DNA of 19,064 bases, from positions 1-19,064 of the forward strand of contig JBHLNZ010000060.1 in assembly GCA_048941015.1 (NCBI GenBank), given 5' to 3'. A program made the position numbers and the translations under genes. The notes under the pieces were generated by a model that worked only from the letters and a program-made list of their open reading frames with translations, did not search any database and was not told the DNA's origin. The stretch's first letter is position 1, and each line of letters starts with the position of its first letter. Of the stretch, positions 1 through 8,478 are shown in pieces. The DNA is from Promethearchaeota archaeon. Lineage in GTDB: Archaea; Asgardarchaeota; Lokiarchaeia; Sigyniarchaeales; SOKP01.

Positions 1-467
1 CTACGTAAAACTCCAACTACTAAGCCATGTCGTCCTGTACTCTTGGTGCGTTGTCCTCTTACTTTTAATCCTAAATGGTGTCGAACTCCTTTATAACTTT
101 TAATGCGTTTCATTCTATCGATATCTCTTTTTACTGTGATTTCTAACTGGTTTCCAAGGATATGAAGGTTCTCCCCGGTTCTTAAATCTTTTTTCCGATT
201 AACCATCCAGTTTGGAACACCATTTGCAATAGGATTTAAAATAATTTCTTCGAGTCTATTTAGATCTTTTTCTGGGATTGCTCCAATTCTCATATCTGGA
301 TTTACTTCTGCTATTTTAACAATAGCTTGGGATAATCTTTTACCAATTCCTCTTATTTGAGTTAATCCATATTCCACTTTTGCATTTCCATCTACTTGAG
401 ATCTTAACTTCCGGAAGAAAACTTTTTCTCGAAAGTTTTTTGGGCGAACTGGTGATGTTGTACTCAT
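1..467 (-). CDS. rps13: 30S ribosomal protein uS13 (archaeal S13P), 3' end runs off the window
   Basis: Manual translation from ATG at 467: MSTTSPVRPKNFREKVFF...GLTQIRGIGKRLSQAI...PNWMVNRKKDLRTG...KSYKGVRHHLGLKVRGQRTKSTGRHG. The GIG and RHxxGLxVRGQRT motifs are uS13 signatures. Absent from the ORF track because there is no stop in the window. Confidence 0.96.
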   Translation of the reverse strand, partial: MSTTSPVRPKNFREKVFFRKLRSQVDGNAKVEYGLTQIRGIGKRLSQAIVKIAEVNPDMRIGAIPEKDLNRLEEIILNPIANGVPNWMVNRKKDLRTGENLHILGNQLEITVKRDIDRMKRIKSYKGVRHHLGLKVRGQRTKSTGRHGLVVGVLR

Positions 468-579
468 ATTTTAATACAGTTAATTGTTAGATATTATTAT
501 TTTTAATATGAAATTTAATATTAACTTTATGGTTCAGAATTCCAAAATCTTCTTTAAATGATGTTCAATAAAAAAGATT

Positions 580-2076
580 CTAATATTGGGGTATTCTCTT
601 ATTTTCTTTTTGTTTTTGCTCTATATGTTTATAACAATTATTCTTTTTTGAAAGCGCAATTTTCTCTAGCATTGGAAAACCGGGTTTAACATCTTTTATA
701 TCTTTATACTCAATCAAATCATCTTTGATTAAGTTTTCAAACAATTTCTTTCCTTTTAGAGTTCTTACTATTACTGTATTCCAACCAGGAGGTGAACCTG
801 TTGAGCCAAGGGAAATATCCGCAGATTCTGATGTAAGATCAAAACAAACTTCGCAATCTTCTCGCGCTAAGTTTGAAATTTCTTTTACTGGTATTGTAAA
901 TTCTTCACCTGATTTAGTATAGACAAAAAATTTACCTTTATTAATATCTGTTTTTTTTATATCATCAACGTTCACATTCAGTCGATTACAGATTTCTAAA
1001 AAGGATTGATAAGAAAATGATTCCATACAAAATATGCCAATACGATATTTCACTTTATTTAAGGAAGGAATTCCGATGTTATAAACCTGAGACTTTAATA
1101 GTCCTTGCATCATGCAAGGAACTCCTACAATTGCTATATTGGAGCCATTATCATTTAATTCGTTTAATATTCTAAGATTGGGACTATTAACATATTTAGT
1201 TCCTGAAGTAAGCAAGACATCACTTTTATTTTTAAGTAATTTGGGTTCTGGACGCCAAGGAGTTTGGCTCATTGTTGCACCTAAAGCATAATCTATTTGA
1301 TTATTCTCGAACAGATAATGTAAACAAGTACTAGAAATACCTCCATCTTGACAGATTTCAGAGATTTCTTTTATTTTAGTCCGAGCAGAATATACTCCAA
1401 TATAATGGCCAATATTTGAATAATTTTCTATTTCCGAAGAATCTGATTGCAACATATTTAAAATAGTTATTGGTAAATAAGTTCTGGGGCAATGATAATA
1501 ACATAAGCCACATCGAATACATTTATCCTGATCGATTTTTCCAAACCCATTATATACATTTAAACAGTTTACAGGACAAATTCCTGAGCATAAACCGCAC
1601 CCAGAACACACATTTGATTCAAAAATTATACTAACTGGTTCATAAACAGATTTAGTTTCTGAAAGATTTATGTTCTTTGTCTCAATTAGTATATCTTTAA
1701 ACGTTAATATATTTTCCTCTGAATTTTCTTCTTGAATCTTATCATAAACAATCTTAAAAGCTAATAAATTTTCATTCTTTAATAATTCTAATAAGCTAAG
1801 AGTTCTTCTTATATCAATCTCATTTTTTTTTGAGAATTTCTTTAATAAATTAAAGTCTTTTTTGTTTTTGTTATTATTTAAATAGCATAAAAGAGAAGTT
1901 TTAAGTTGTTCTTCATCAAATGTTTTAAAAAATATATTATAATATTGATCTTCATTGTAAATTCCTGCATTTAGAATATCTTCCTTAGCATCTATTAGAA
2001 CTCGAATTCTATATGAATCTAGGGTATCCGCTAAATTTTTCAAAAATTCCCATGAAATATTTGATTCAGAACCCAT
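580..2076 (-). CDS. Coenzyme F420 hydrogenase/dehydrogenase beta-subunit family protein (FrhB/FpoF-like) with 2x[4Fe-4S] ferredoxin domain and ~145-aa N-terminal extension
   Basis: Ferredoxin motifs CSGCGLCSGICP and CIRCGLCYYHCP. FrhB motifs QDGG, GTKY, VGVPC, IGIFCMESF, CEVCFD..SESADIS.GS.GSPPGWNTVIVRT. Stop TAG. Confidence 0.9.
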   Translation of the reverse strand: MGSESNISWEFLKNLADTLDSYRIRVLIDAKEDILNAGIYNEDQYYNIFFKTFDEEQLKTSLLCYLNNNKNKKDFNLLKKFSKKNEIDIRRTLSLLELLKNENLLAFKIVYDKIQEENSEENILTFKDILIETKNINLSETKSVYEPVSIIFESNVCSGCGLCSGICPVNCLNVYNGFGKIDQDKCIRCGLCYYHCPRTYLPITILNMLQSDSSEIENYSNIGHYIGVYSARTKIKEISEICQDGGISSTCLHYLFENNQIDYALGATMSQTPWRPEPKLLKNKSDVLLTSGTKYVNSPNLRILNELNDNGSNIAIVGVPCMMQGLLKSQVYNIGIPSLNKVKYRIGIFCMESFSYQSFLEICNRLNVNVDDIKKTDINKGKFFVYTKSGEEFTIPVKEISNLAREDCEVCFDLTSESADISLGSTGSPPGWNTVIVRTLKGKKLFENLIKDDLIEYKDIKDVKPGFPMLEKIALSKKNNCYKHIEQKQKENKRIPQY

Positions 2077-2137
2077 TATTGAAATTCTTTTATGAATATA
2101 ATATGTTTAAAATTTCCGAAAACTTTTACTAAAAGTT

Positions 2138-2174
2138 AGTCACCTTCTAACTCAATTTTTCTTAGAAAGTTCAT
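2138..2174 (-). promoter_or_regulatory. SECIS element, eukaryote-like (Lokiarchaeal type), in the 3' UTR of vhuD
   Basis: Minus strand reads AUGA-ACUUUCUAA-GAAAAAUUGAG-UUAGAAGGU-GA-CU. AUGA (2174-2171) and GA (2141-2140) form the core around a 9-bp stem (8 Watson-Crick pairs plus 1 G-U) capped by an A-rich loop. A lower stem UCCGAA/UUCGGA (2185-2180 with 2120-2115) is also possible. It sits directly downstream of genes with UGA at Cys positions. Confidence 0.88.
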
Positions 2175-2606
2175 TCAATTTCGGATTAAAATTTTTTTTG
2201 GTAGAGGAGGCAATTTTTGAATTTTTTTAGTGATATCTTCGACAGATTGAATAAATCTATCAACCTCGGCCGCTGCACAAAAGTATTGCTGAATTCTATC
2301 CTCAGAAATGCCCACATGATTAAAAATTTTCTTTAAAAAACGAATATGCTTATTAGTATTCATATTTGCTTTTCCAAAATCGCACTCACCTTCATGGCAA
2401 GATATTACTGCTACACCATCAGCTCCATTTAGAAAAGCGTCCATAATTAAGTGAAATCCAACTCTTCCTGTACATTTAACTTTAATAAGATGAAACTCTG
2501 TGGAGTAAGACTTTCGAGTAGTTCCTGTTAAATCTGCGACCGAATATCCTCATTTCTCACATCCAAAAGCAATTACTGTTCTTTTTATACTTAATTTTTC
2601 TGACAT
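2175..2606 (-). CDS. mvhD: Selenoprotein hydrogenase iron-sulfur delta subunit MvhD/VhuD, 143 aa, Sec19 (UGA at 2552-2550)
   Basis: From ATG 2606 (SD GAGGTG at 2620-2615): MSEKLSIKRTVIAFGCEK-U-GYSVADLTGTTRKSYSTEFHLIKVKCTGRV...GADGVAVISCHEGECDFG. The UGA is the second position of the MvhD N-terminal CxxC motif. The ORF track shows only the 89 aa from an internal Met. Confidence 0.93.
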
Positions 2607-2614
2607 TTTCTTAG

Positions 2615-2620
2615 CACCTC
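2615..2620 (-). promoter_or_regulatory. Shine-Dalgarno site of mvhD/vhuD
   Basis: GAGGTG 8 nt before ATG 2606, within the 21-nt hdrA-vhuD gap. Supports the upstream start and co-transcription. Confidence 0.75.
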
Positions 2621-2627
2621 TTTATGT

Positions 2628-4634
2628 TTAATTTTGAATGGTTCCTTTTGATTTTGTAATTTTTTTTATCTCTGAATCTGGTAACCCAATTCCTTTAAAT
2701 TCCCCTATAAATTGTTTATCTCTATAATAAGTTAATTCAATTGCTCGTGCAGGACAAGAAGTTACGCAAAGTCCGCATCCTTTACATTTAAGATCAGCAA
2801 CTTCTGCAATTCCATCTGATCGAACTTTTATCGCATCGAATTCACAAAGTTTTTCACATCTATGGCATCCCATACAAAGTTCTTCGTTAACTTCAGCAAT
2901 TATTAATTCTTGAGTTAAAATATCATTTGAAAGGAGAGTTGCAGCTTTACTTGCAGCTCCTAAAGCAGAGGATACAGAATATGGAATATTTTTCGGACCA
3001 GTAGCACATCCACATATATAAATTCCATAATCCTTTGTCTCAACAGGTTTTAAGCATCCATGGATTTCTGTTAAAAACCCATTTGGTCCTCTAGTAAGGC
3101 CCATAATTTCAGCAATCTCTAAAGTTCCTTTAGACGGAATCATTCCAGTCGATAGAACGATTAAGTCAAAATTCATACTTGTAACTTGCTCTGATGATAG
3201 TGAGTCAAAGAACAATTTCATTGAACCATCATTGTTTAATTTGATATCTCCTGGTTTGCCTTTTATAAAGTTGATTTTTTGTTCTCTTATTTTTCTATAA
3301 TATTCTTCATTTCCTTTATCCCAAGTTCTAATATCAATATAAAATATGGTGATTTCCATCTCAGGATATTCCTGTTTTAATAATTGAGCATTCTTCAAGG
3401 CAACGTTACAGCAAACGGCAGAACAATATTGATTACCTCTTAAACTACGAGACCCTACGCATTGTATGATTGCAACTTGTTTAGGAATCTTTCCATCTGA
3501 GATTCTATAAACATGACCTCCAGTTGGACCAATTGGACTCAGCATTCTTTCAAGCTCTATTTGGGTAATTACATCCGTGTAAATTCCATATTTAAATTCA
3601 TTAGTTTTCATAATCTGATATTCGTCCCATCCGGTTGCGATAATTATAGCCCCGACTTGTATTTCAATTATCTGTTCTTCTTGATCCATTTCAATAGCTT
3701 CAGCAGGACATATTCTTTCACAATTTTTACAGTCAATGCAAACTGACTTATCAATAACAGCGAATTTAGGAACTGCTTGAGGAAATGGTATATAAATGGC
3801 ATTTCTCTCACCTATTCCCCTGTCAAATTCATTTGGAATTTTAATTGGACATTTAGTTGTGCAAAGTCCGCATCCCGTACACTTTTTTTCGTTTACAAAA
3901 CGAGGATTTTTCCTAATTTTAACCATATAGTTCCCTGTAATACCCTTAAAGTCTATTATTTCGCTGTAAGTTAATAGAGTGATATTTGGATGTTTGTAAG
4001 CATTTACCATGATTGGTGCTAAGACTCATATACCACAGTCATCAGTGGGAAAGATTCTATCTAACTGTGCCATTTTTCCCCCTATTGTAGGTTCTTTTTC
4101 AACTAGATAAACATTGATTCCCTGACCGGCTAAATCTAAAGCTGCATTCATACCCGCAATACCTGCACCAACTACTAAGGCTGCTTTTGTTATAGGAATT
4201 TCTTTTCTAGGTACAGATTCTAATTGTCTAGCTCGATTTATTCCAGCAAGCATAAGTCTTATAGCTTTTTCGGTAGCTTCTTTGATTTTTCCTTGATGAA
4301 CAAAGGAACATTGTTCTCGTAAATTTACCATCTGAAAGTAATAAGGACTTAATCCTGCTTCAACAAGAACAGCTCTATAGGTAGGTTCATGTATCTTTGG
4401 AGTGCATGCGCCGACAACAACTCTGTTTAAGTTTAAATCTAGAATATCGTTCTTTATAATTTGCTGACCAGGATCACTACAAGTGAAACTGTTAATTCGG
4501 GCAACCACTACGTTTGGTAAAGTTTCAACATAATCTTTAACAGTGTCACAATCAATATGTGCACCAATATTAACACCTCATCTACAAATATAAACCCCTA
4601 TCCTTATCTCATCCTTGGTCTGTTTTTCAGACAA
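2628..4634 (-). CDS. hdrA: Selenoprotein heterodisulfide reductase subunit A (HdrA), 668 aa, Sec19 (UGA 4580-4578) and Sec203 (UGA 4028-4026)
   Basis: One frame runs from TTG 4634 (GGGTGG just upstream; alternative GTG 4643) to TAA 2628, broken only by two TGA codons: RIGVYICR-U-GVNIG (HdrA CxCGxNI motif) and DRIFPTDDCGI-U-VLAPIM (HdrA FPTxDCxxC motif). Also GAGIAG FAD motif, CTGCGLCTTKCP, CIDCKNCERICP, CVGSR, YCSAVCC, CMGCHRCEKLC, CKGCGLCVTSCP. Joins track ORFs 4026..4508 and 2628..4010. Confidence 0.95.
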
Positions 4635-4922
4635 TAGATCCACCCTTTTAAAATATCACCATACAAGCCAATTAATTTCTTGATACTATTTTTAAAATTA
4701 TTCAAAAACTTGTTGTTTTAGGAAATATTAAAATTAATTTATTTTTTCTGGTAAAGTTTAATAAATCAAAAAGAGTTTTGGATCATCTAATAAAAATTAA
4801 AAATTGTATGAGAAATTACAGCTTCTCAGTAAATTTTATGATTTTGTGATAATTTTAAGTAAAAATTGCGATTGATTTCGTGTCTAATTAAGTTTTTTTT
4901 GGTAAAATCATTATTAATTATT

Positions 4923-5108
4923 ATGGTTGAGTCAGAGGAAGAGAGAAAAGAAGAATTTGCAAAACAATTTATGCTTGATGAAGGGTTGAAAGGGAAAGCT
5001 ACAAGAATTAAAATTATGAAAATTATCGACTCTGTTGGGTATAACAAAAAAAAGATAAAAACTTCTTTTTTACGTTCCACAATTAATGAAAGGATTCACC
5101 TTGATTGA
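4923..5108 (+). CDS. Small hypothetical protein (61 aa)
   Basis: ATG 4923: MVESEEERKEEFAKQFMLDEGLKGKATRIKIMKIIDSVGYNKKKIKTSFLRSTINERIHLD. Purine-rich and protein-like. The track's upstream extension from 4866 looks non-coding. Ends in TGA. Confidence 0.7.
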   Translation: MVESEEERKEEFAKQFMLDEGLKGKATRIKIMKIIDSVGYNKKKIKTSFLRSTINERIHLD

Positions 5109-5204
5109 GTGATTAAATTATCTTAAAAATTAGTCTATATTTCAAAAATTTATAAAAAAGATTAAAGATTAATAGATTCATTAAAAAACAAGAGGAATTG
5201 TTGA

Positions 5205-6488
5205 GTGCTTGATATTGAATTATTTCGAAGTGATTTAAAAAGAATTATTGAATCAGAAAAAAAAAGATTCAAAGATTCTTCTAATGCCAAAAAAGTAGTT
5301 GAGTTTGATGAAAAATGGAAAGATACACTTAGAACACTCCAAGATTTAAGAAAAGAAAGAAATGATATTTCTAAATTGATGAGTGATTATAAAAGATCTG
5401 GAGAAACGGAAAAATTTGAAAGAACAAAGACAAAATCAAAGGAGATTAAAGATAAAATTGAACAGTTAGAACGTAATGAATCTAATTTTTTAGAACAAAG
5501 AGAAAAGTATCGATATTTAGTAGGAAATATAATAGATGATACAGTTCCAGTAGGAGAAAACGAAGAATTCAATGAAATTTTAAGAACTTTTGGCAAGATC
5601 CCTCGTTTTGATTTTATACCACTTTCTCATGTAGACTTAATAACTAAGATTGGAGGTGCTGATACAAATAAAGCATCTCAAATAGCAGGCTCAAGATTTT
5701 ATTATTTGAAAGGAGATTTAGTTTCACTTAACTTAGCATTAATAAAATTTGCACTTGATAAATTAGTAAGTAAAGGATTCATTCCATTCTGGACTCCTTT
5801 TTTCATTAAGCACGAAATTATAAAAGCTGCTGCCGAACTTGCTGATTTTGAAGATCAACTATATAGGATACAAGATGAGGATCTCTTTATGATTGCGACT
5901 TCAGAACAACCGTTAGCTGCTTATCATTACGATGAAATTATTGATCCTCAATCATTACCTTTAAAATATGCCGGAATTTCATCTTGTTTCAGACGTGAAG
6001 CAGGATCTCATGGAAAAGATACATTAGGAATTTTTCGAGTTCATCAATTTGAGAAAGTAGAACAATTTATCTTTTGTAAACCTGAAGATTCTTGGAAATA
6101 TCATGAAGAACTTATTAAAACAAGTGAAGAAATATATAAAGATCTTCAAATCCCTTATCGCATTGTAAACTTAGCATCGGGAGAATTAAATGATAACGCT
6201 TCAAAAAAGTACGATTTAGAGGCATGGTTTCCTGCTTCTGAAACTTACAGAGAACTTGTTTCTTGCACTAACTGTTTAGATTATCAAGCAAGAAAATTGA
6301 AAATAAGAATGGGAAAAGTTGGTTCCCAAGAAGAAAAAAGAATTTTACATACACTGAATGCAACTGCAATCGCAACTGAAAGAACTATCTGTTGTATTTT
6401 AGAGAATTATCAAAATAAAGACCATACTGTTAATGTTCCTAAAGTACTTCAAAAATATATGAATGGAAAAAAATTATTAAATCAATAA
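5205..6488 (+). CDS. serS: Serine--tRNA ligase (standard, non-methanogen type)
   Basis: MLDIELFR start, N-terminal coiled-coil arm, ATSEQPL, FRREAG..G.DTLGIFRVHQFEKVEQF (motif 2), KKYDLEAWFP, ELVSCTNC.DYQAR, HTLNATA.ATERT (motif 3). GTG start after GAGG. Confidence 0.98.
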   Translation: MLDIELFRSDLKRIIESEKKRFKDSSNAKKVVEFDEKWKDTLRTLQDLRKERNDISKLMSDYKRSGETEKFERTKTKSKEIKDKIEQLERNESNFLEQREKYRYLVGNIIDDTVPVGENEEFNEILRTFGKIPRFDFIPLSHVDLITKIGGADTNKASQIAGSRFYYLKGDLVSLNLALIKFALDKLVSKGFIPFWTPFFIKHEIIKAAAELADFEDQLYRIQDEDLFMIATSEQPLAAYHYDEIIDPQSLPLKYAGISSCFRREAGSHGKDTLGIFRVHQFEKVEQFIFCKPEDSWKYHEELIKTSEEIYKDLQIPYRIVNLASGELNDNASKKYDLEAWFPASETYRELVSCTNCLDYQARKLKIRMGKVGSQEEKRILHTLNATAIATERTICCILENYQNKDHTVNVPKVLQKYMNGKKLLNQ

Positions 6489-7749: not shown

Positions 7750-8478
7750 TTATTTAATTTGTTTTATTTCGAGATCACGGTTGTCTTCTATATTCTTTTT
7801 GGAGATGGATAATTTTAAATTCTCCTTTAAAAATTTATAAGTTTCTGTATGAGTTAAATTAAATATTTTTAAATACTCGTAAGCTAATACTAAATCCTGC
7901 TTTATGTCAATATCAAATCCTGCTCGAAAGGAATCATAAATTACTAATTTTAAATCAAGTCTATTTGCTTCGTTAAGTAAAGCAACTAAAGAAGGAGTGG
8001 TTGGATTGGAAAAGTAAGTTGGTATGATATTTGGTGGATTTCTTCCAAGTAATGATATCCCAGCAGAGTGAATTGCTGGACATAAAACTAATTGATTCTT
8101 TCTTAATAGTGAATAAACTTCATTAAAATTTTTTTTTGATATTAAAATAAGATCAAGAAAAGTAAAAAGAGTCTCACTCGCATTATATTTTTTCAAAGCG
8201 ATAGTGTTTAAATCTTTAATAACATCATCGAAAGATTTTCTTGGTAGTGTTAATCGTTCCTTTATACTTGTAAGGTTGTAATCATCAGCAATTTCAAGAA
8301 TTTCAGATGTATTACAATATACTATTTTTTCATCAAATACTTTTACTTTTAGTAGTGTATTTGCAAGATCTTTAAACATTGAAATCGTTAGTTCCCGTAG
8401 TTGATTTTGTGAAAAACAATCTCTTAAGCGAGATTTTGTTCTAGATAAAGGAGCGATAGGGACAAGTAATACACTCAT
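7750..8478 (-). CDS. cofC: CofC-like 2-phospho-L-lactate/PEP guanylyltransferase (F420 biosynthesis), divergent
   Basis: N-terminal VP..PLSRTKSRL...S...LRELTISMFKD matches the CofC P.K....KSRL...L...M..D pattern. DLILI resembles DLPLL and C-terminal FDIDIKQDL resembles DVDTPEDL. Confidence 0.75.
   Translation of the reverse strand: MSVLLVPIAPLSRTKSRLRDCFSQNQLRELTISMFKDLANTLLKVKVFDEKIVYCNTSEILEIADDYNLTSIKERLTLPRKSFDDVIKDLNTIALKKYNASETLFTFLDLILISKKNFNEVYSLLRKNQLVLCPAIHSAGISLLGRNPPNIIPTYFSNPTTPSLVALLNEANRLDLKLVIYDSFRAGFDIDIKQDLVLAYEYLKIFNLTHTETYKFLKENLKLSISKKNIEDNRDLEIKQIK

Follow-up and report, generated by a model that had tools for sequence, protein, structure and literature searches.

Probable hdrA-vhuD selenoprotein gene pair with three UGA codons and one shared lokiSECIS in a Lokiarchaeial genome

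The window analyzed here is the whole 19,064-nt contig JBHLNZ010000060.1 (C137) of the Promethearchaeota archaeon assembly GCA_048941015.1, a bin of 3.59 Mb and 144 contigs that is 95% complete with 5% estimated contamination. Its minus strand carries hdrA, coding for an HdrA homologue, followed by vhuD (also known as mvhD or frhD), coding for a [2Fe-2S] delta subunit. Three in-frame TGA codons interrupt the two genes, and a selenocysteine (Sec) insertion sequence (SECIS) of the type described in Lokiarchaeota (lokiSECIS) follows vhuD. The pair is read here, with a probability of about 0.95, as two selenoprotein genes whose three UGAs are decoded as Sec by means of the one shared lokiSECIS. 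This reading is carried by intact reading frames, homology across the UGAs, their alignment with Cys/Sec columns, the conservation of UGA itself, a covarying SECIS and a full Sec machinery in the genome. The features of the pair are as follows.

2628..4634, minus strand: hdrA, putative selenoprotein HdrA homologue; 668 codons, TTG start at 4634, TAA stop at 2630-2628
4578..4580, minus strand: UGA-1, predicted Sec, HdrA residue 19; context CR-U-GVNI, N-terminal C-x-U-G motif; about 2.4 kb upstream of the SECIS
4026..4028, minus strand: UGA-2, predicted Sec, HdrA residue 203; context DDCGI-U-VLAP, the canonical HdrA Sec site DDCxxU; about 1.85 kb upstream of the SECIS
2607..2627, minus strand: hdrA-vhuD spacer of 21 nt; GAGGTG Shine-Dalgarno-like motif, read from the sequence
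2175..2606, minus strand: vhuD/mvhD/frhD, [2Fe-2S] delta subunit; 143 codons, TGA stop at 2177-2175
2550..2552, minus strand: UGA-3, predicted Sec, VhuD residue 19; context CEK-U-GY; 375 nt upstream of the SECIS
2397..2399, minus strand: TGC, Cys70 of VhuD, at the second canonical VhuD Sec position
2140..2174, minus strand: lokiSECIS, type I eukaryote-like; AUGA, fully paired 9-bp stem, 11-nt loop GAAAAAUUGAG, closing GA

Translation of the minus strand of 2175-4643 with table 11 yields three open reading frames (ORFs), at 4508..4026 (160 aa), 4010..2628 (460 aa) and 2444..2175 (89 aa). When TGA is read through, the fragments merge into a frame of 671 aa (4643..2628) and a frame of 143 aa (2606..2178). 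ORF translation and direct reading of the sequence found no frameshift and no TAA or TAG inside either read-through frame; apart from the TGAs at 4580-4578, 4028-4026 and 2552-2550, nothing interrupts the two genes. An earlier note on this DNA had placed TGAs at 4580, 4028 and 2552, in the contexts CR-U-GVNI, DCGI-U-VLAP and CEK-U-GY, and had merged three fragments and two 5' segments into two intact genes without frameshift or other stop; direct reading puts the three codons at exactly these places and returns the same two genes. Its 5' limit of 4634 is also the better start of hdrA. Of 80 relatives, 73 have ATG, TTG or GTG at the position of TTG 4634, and an in-frame TAA or TAG one codon or just upstream of the aligned start is common among the relatives, so TTG 4634, which is preceded by GGGTGGA, is probably the start codon. 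The in-frame GTG at 4643 is, on the same sequences, a less likely one. Numbering from TTG 4634 places the HdrA Sec residues at 19 and 203; numbering from GTG 4643 would place them at 22 and 206.

The relatives are 80 Asgard loci with 70-79% protein identity, found by scanning prokaryotic genomes, one for each species. Nearly all are labelled as Promethearchaeota or Promethearchaeia metagenome-assembled genomes (MAGs), and a few have other Asgard labels. Counts for HdrA columns refer to all 80 loci and those for VhuD columns to the 48 that have vhuD.

The read-through HdrA matches solved HdrA chains near full length (9sfi_A, E=1.7e-212; 5odc_A, 9e-209), and a single alignment to 9sfi_A covers residues 13-652, spanning both UGAs. 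Its Pfam matches are Fer4 and FAD/pyridine-nucleotide domains, found on either side of the UGAs, and the protein has an FAD/Rossmann domain and four ferredoxin-type motifs. The top NCBIfam model is HdrA2 (NF040770), with 825 bits and a cut-off of 1100 bits that is not reached. HdrA-19 aligns with Cys13 of 9sfi_A; additional Sec positions are known in Loki HdrA (PMC4989117). HdrA-203 aligns with a non-standard residue, X, of the solved Methanococcus maripaludis HdrA (9sfi_A), which is Sec197 (PMC13518236). A crystal structure shows Cys197, at this column, ligating the N-terminal [4Fe-4S] cluster that belongs to the other protomer (PMC9012536); in the 2026 cryo-EM structure of the Sec form, Sec197 is instead bonded to a cysteine, and a selenylsulfide relay is proposed (PMC13518236).

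VhuD matches PF02662 FlpD (MvhD/FlpD family; E=3.7e-37) and the VhuD/MvhD chains of the PDB (E=1e-25 to 1e-22), and scores 123 bits with NF045873 VhuD, under the cut-off. VhuD-19 aligns with X (Sec) of M. maripaludis 9sfi_K in the motif VCYQ-X-GY, at the first conserved Cys/Sec column of PF02662. A second Sec about 50 codons downstream is typical of the VhuD family, not obligatory, and is replaced here by Cys (TGC) at residue 70, aligned with the second X of 9sfi_K. Column 70 is TGA in 45 of 48 relatives and TGT or TGC in the other three (L023, L029 and L032), which are among the loci most similar to the window.

The earlier note had regarded HdrA and MvhD as known selenoprotein families, in agreement with the methanococcal structure 9sfi and the Lokiarchaeota pairs (PMC4989117), and had assigned all three UGAs to positions of Cys ligands of Fe-S clusters. 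The second assignment stands for HdrA-203 (Cys197, PMC9012536); HdrA-19 and VhuD-19 are conserved Cys/Sec columns in cluster-binding domains, and a literature search for an explicit statement of an Fe-S ligand found one for Cys197 only and none for these two. Of the checks that the note had named, alignment of the read-through translations to HdrA and MvhD homologues, conservation of UGA or Cys in relatives and a genome search for Sec machinery all came out in its favor, and its view that all three codons encode Sec is strengthened by the SECIS, which it had not included.

TGA is found at the column of UGA-1 in 79/80 related loci, at that of UGA-2 in 80/80 and at that of UGA-3 in 48/48. Such conservation at three columns is far beyond chance. 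The hdrA-vhuD spacers of the relatives measure 6-26 nt. The genome itself has four hdrA-vhuD pairs, including that of the window, with TGA at the same columns; the paralogues are 44-47% identical. At least four further hdrA-vhuD paralogues of the same genome have Cys at these columns, and such Cys-type pairs lie on C84, C6, C53 and C51. The three other Sec-type pairs each have their own lokiSECIS, and each of their VhuDs has two Sec.

C5:5915-3520, minus strand: Sec-type hdrA-vhuD pair
C44:43066-40704, minus strand: Sec-type hdrA-vhuD pair
C131:15834-13458, minus strand: Sec-type hdrA-vhuD pair

Column 80 of the C131 HdrA carries a TGA as well, the third in that gene, and the related locus L034 shares it.

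The SECIS begins at the base directly after the UGA stop of vhuD (2177-2175). LokiSECIS elements are defined by AUGA, a 9-bp stem, an 11-nt loop that is A-rich at its start and has an ultraconserved final G, and GA after the stem (PMC4989117). The element of the window has every one of these features, including G as the last base of the loop. It closes with GA, which (or AA) is the accepted closing, and lies 3' of the final UGA-bearing gene, the accepted position. The minimum free energy (MFE) fold reproduces the hairpin exactly, and among 46 aligned loci compensatory changes occur at 9/9 stem pairs. A strict SECIS pattern has nine matches in the genome and 0-2 in shuffled sequences; four of the nine lie directly 3' of the four TGA-bearing vhuD genes. 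In a genome-wide pattern scan, the sole match at the hdrA-vhuD locus of the window is that after vhuD, with none after hdrA. The strict pattern occupies the same place in 40 of 48 vhuD-bearing relatives, and most of the others have near variants. An Rfam scan of positions 1-6000 of the window (E<=10) returned chance-level matches to snoRNA and sRNA families and no SECIS family, the presence of a lokiSECIS model in Rfam being not established. Another exact match to the lokiSECIS pattern, followed by a GC-rich hairpin, lies at C20:3819 on the minus strand (L105), near a Cys-rich ORF of 37 codons that ends in TGA; no convincing upstream UGA-containing ORF could be assigned to this match.

In 32/80 related loci (about 40%; L033-L100), hdrA has both TGAs and no vhuD follows it. 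A SECIS is present 14-23 nt past the hdrA stop, or in the last 43 nt of the extended frame, in 25 of the 26 vhuD-less loci examined; for example, the hdrA of L037 has its own lokiSECIS at L037:3534-3600. These loci form a natural control: since the element shifts to the 3' end of hdrA when vhuD is missing, the SECIS tracks the last UGA-bearing cistron. They depart from the published picture, in which hdrA and vhuD/frhD of Asgard archaea are stated to be always adjacent (PMC4989117, PMC11227280).

The genome encodes the full set of a Sec-utilizing archaeon, i.e., tRNA-Sec, SepSecS, PSTK, EFSec (aSelB) and SelD. The tRNA-Sec scores 61 bits, over the Rfam threshold, and is called SeC(tca) by ARAGORN. 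The distance from this tRNA gene to SepSecS (475 bits) is 70 nt and that to EFSec about 3 kb; the three are within 6 kb on C119. The closest solved relative of EFSec is SelB of M. maripaludis (4ac9, 2e-90), followed by human eEFSec, and the top match of PSTK is 3adb (5e-27). SelD, on C48 (L008:2346-1306, minus strand), has U in its active-site motif IFG-U-SCKLG and is itself a selenoprotein. The SelD gene has a further TGA three codons past its listed GTG start, and its true start is probably downstream of that TGA.

On this evidence all three UGAs of the pair almost certainly encode Sec. Several points weigh against this interpretation. The stability of the SECIS hairpin is unexceptional in a genome of 29% GC (z = -0.8 to -1.2 relative to shuffles), so that support for the element is drawn from its pattern, position and covariation. 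None of HdrA, VhuD, PSTK and EFSec reaches its curated NCBIfam cut-off, these cut-offs having been derived from methanogens. The machinery genes lie on contigs other than that of the window, in a bin of 144 contigs with the contamination given above; these contigs have about 29% GC, as does the window, in a homogeneous composition. Selenium incorporation, transcription and translation in this MAG are predictions from sequence. To our knowledge, no SECIS-binding factor is known in archaea, which leaves a long-range mechanism across cistrons unproven. SBP2 is not known in Asgard archaea (PMC4989117).

Three other explanations were weighed. If the pair were made of pseudogenes or truncated genes, the TGAs would be nonsense mutations and only fragments, or nothing, would be produced, which agrees with the three fragments given by standard gene calling. 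Nonsense mutations are, however, not expected at the same Cys columns in 48-80 loci and in paralogues that are only 44-47% identical, nor do they fit frames free of frameshifts and of TAA/TAG, 70-79% protein conservation across the TGAs and a dedicated SECIS 3' of the pair; this explanation is therefore given next to no weight. Sequencing error was rejected as well, as relatives and paralogues share the TGA columns. A general sense meaning of TGA, as Trp or Gly (NCBI tables 4 and 25), is equally hard to credit. It would account for the W printed at TGA positions in the public gene calls P0001-P0003, but TGA ends 212 of about 1500 long frames (>=300 codons) of the genome and 2/20 genes of the window, vhuD among them, which excludes a general reassignment. 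Moreover, the aligned residue of homologues is always Cys or Sec, never Trp or Gly, and the UGA-decoding tRNA that was found is the tRNA-Sec adjoining SepSecS.

The third explanation accepts the UGAs as real recoding sites and supposes that they are largely decoded as Cys, or that translation largely terminates there, for example under selenium limitation or through thiophosphate-based loading of Cys on tRNA-Sec. The functional protein would then often be a Cys form or scarce. The four or more Cys-type hdrA-vhuD paralogues of the genome speak for it, and so does the second Sec of the window's VhuD, already swapped for Cys. Methanococcus switches between Sec and Cys isoenzymes (PMC11097638; PMC13518236), and the coexistence of Sec and Cys paralogues here is reminiscent of this. 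Against it stands the strict retention of TGA over TGT/TGC in 79-80/80 loci, which argues that Sec itself is selected. Predominant decoding as Cys is thus very unlikely, though a shade less so than the two explanations above, and decoding of the three UGAs as Sec remains the preferred reading.

In that reading, hdrA and vhuD, perhaps together with an frhB-like gene downstream, would probably be carried on one mRNA, and the archaeal EFSec would bring the Sec-tRNA(Sec) that decodes the UGAs. The single lokiSECIS would serve UGAs at distances of 375 nt, about 1.85 kb and about 2.4 kb, reaching across the stop of hdrA and the start of vhuD. The UGA stop of vhuD abuts the SECIS and would be too close to it for recoding. 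The stop of hdrA is UAA and thus not misreadable as Sec. Automatic calls gave TGA as the hdrA stop in 4/79 relatives; at least that of L025 is an artefact, the walk having begun past the TAA at column 662, and the four calls were left out of the assessment of the rule that hdrA stops are UAA or UAG.

Rather than a simple hairpin, the SECIS may form the upper arm of a three-way junction that is conserved.

2115..2185, minus strand: extended element, three-way junction; a lower helix around two hairpins, the SECIS and a small side hairpin 3' of it (2135-2123)

The lower helix has 7 bp, in which UCCGAAA (2185-2179), in the last vhuD codons, pairs with UUUCGGA (2121-2115). The junction is the MFE structure of 2195..2095. 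All three paralogous SECIS regions, with quite different sequences in the lower helix, have MFE folds of this architecture too. Across 46 relatives the pairing of the extended element is kept in 87.9% of cells, and in 31-59% when the partners are slid by 1-3 columns. Double changes occur at 16/21 pairs, and the observed values were reached by no shuffle. The lower helix has a conserved core, CCGA/UCGG, downstream of vhuD in relatives (L021-L095), and the side hairpin covaries. A generic lower stem was modelled in the 2024 Asgard survey (PMC11227280); no mention of a three-way junction or side hairpin was found in the main text of PMC4989117 or PMC11227280. Such a fold could enable recoding up to 2.4 kb away across the cistron boundary, or could block recoding of the abutting UGA stop. 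In the HdrA protein, Sec 19, in the N-terminal cluster domain, and Sec 203, at the column of Cys197 with its bond to the partner's N-terminal cluster, may converge on a single site across the dimer interface, where they would form a cluster ligated by two seleniums or a Sec-Sec redox pair. The junction reading of the SECIS, with the roles just named, and the converging two-Sec HdrA are, taken together, a speculative and rather unlikely extension.

Two neighboring genes bear on the function of the pair.

580..2076, minus strand: FrhB/FpoF-like F420-binding iron-sulfur protein, 498 aa; PF04432, PF04422 and Fer4; NF006807 with 281.5 bits, above cut-off
7750-8478, minus strand: CofC-like F420-biosynthesis gene, 5 kb from the FrhB-like gene

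The FrhB/FpoF-like gene is probably the third cistron of the hdrA-vhuD module. The sequence of its start is conserved after the SECIS in relatives; the N-terminal approximately 145 residues of the protein have no Pfam match. A search confined to the 19-kb window found no hdrB/hdrC (hdrBC) or [NiFe]-hydrogenase genes. The HdrA2-type best match, the FrhB-like gene and the cofC-like gene together suggest a bifurcating module linked to F420, not an enzyme of methanogenesis. HdrA and MvhD would likely form a flavin-based electron-bifurcating module that receives its electrons by way of the FrhB-like subunit, and not a methanogenic heterodisulfide reductase.

Another gene with in-frame TGAs was encountered elsewhere in the genome.

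C31:43576-43800 (L104:280-501), minus strand: zinc-ribbon gene, 74 codons; four in-frame TGAs (HG-U-x-U, then P-U)

The gene has a lokiSECIS of its own, whose AUGA includes the TGA stop, and a merA-like flavoprotein disulfide reductase is encoded directly downstream. The gene is conserved with 4-5 TGAs in 9/40 relatives. It was considered as a new four-Sec family and rejected as such, since it matches NF041374, GDCCVxC (seleno)protein, above cut-off. P0001-P0003 are its public homologues, with W at all four Sec positions, from which it follows that some pipeline used a TGA=Trp code on these Asgard contigs.

The arrangement of the pair is already known, and the present case is mainly an annotation fix that adds no new principle. 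The 2016 description of Lokiarchaeota (PMC4989117) covers multi-Sec HdrA, Sec-containing VhuD, their tandem layout, a eukaryote-like SECIS shared by both and the rule on stop codons. In 2024 these features were catalogued across 227 Asgard genomes, where HdrA and FrhD/VhuD outnumber all other selenoprotein sequences (PMC11227280). In the annotation, two selenoprotein genes should take the place of three fragments and two stretches without annotation, and the same holds for the three further pairs of the genome. The earlier note had expected automated pipelines to truncate such genes, as table 11 does here and as was reported for hdrA (PMC12054007); because Sec-interrupted hdrA is missed, the redox metabolism of Asgard archaea is undercounted without such correction. 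The locus is also a clean case of an Asgard eukaryote-like SECIS acting on several UGAs in two cistrons, an arrangement proposed as an intermediate between archaeal and eukaryotic Sec decoding. The covarying junction and the shift of the SECIS to hdrA in loci without vhuD are small additions to the published picture.

Among the closest known systems are the HdrA-VhuD pairs of Lokiarchaeota. As in the window, hdrA lies upstream of vhuD on the same strand with a spacer of about 20 nt (PMC4989117; PMC11227280). HdrA has multiple Sec, including the canonical site near residue 200, and a SECIS with AUGA, 9 bp, an A-rich 11-nt loop ending in G and GA is found after vhuD only. In these pairs too, hdrA ends in UAA, and vhuD may end in a UGA directly next to the SECIS. 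VhuD of these pairs usually has two Sec (PMC4989117), whereas that of the window has one, site 70 being Cys.

HdrA of M. maripaludis and Methanocaldococcus, which is VhuD-associated, shows homology at the level of 50-60% identity over the whole length (9sfi, PMC13518236). In M. maripaludis the HdrA Sec (Sec197) shares the column of HdrA-203 of the window, and Sec also occupies the first of the VhuD columns. The methanococcal genes have a euryarchaeal SECIS with a GAA_A bulge, one per gene, while one lokiSECIS is shared in the window, and methanococcal HdrA has a single Sec where that of the window has two. Methanococcal hdrA sits with hdrBC and vhuAGU and serves methanogenesis; the neighbor in the window is the FrhB-like gene.

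In Methanosarcina, HdrA2 is a fusion of HdrA and MvhD (NF040770), and VhuD of the window aligns to its C-terminal MvhD part (positions 647-773). HdrA2 is fused and contains Cys; in the window HdrA and VhuD are split, Sec replaces Cys, and no hdrB2C2 is adjacent. HdrA2B2C2 is F420H2-dependent, and the FrhB-like gene and cofC of the window recall the F420-type partner of this system.

The eukaryotic type I SECIS shares with the element of the window the AUGA...GA kink-turn-type core and the unpaired A's of the apical loop; both elements also lie 3' and have a minimal spacing from the UGA. The element of the window differs from it in having a shorter upper stem (9 bp), in abutting a stop codon and in serving two cistrons.

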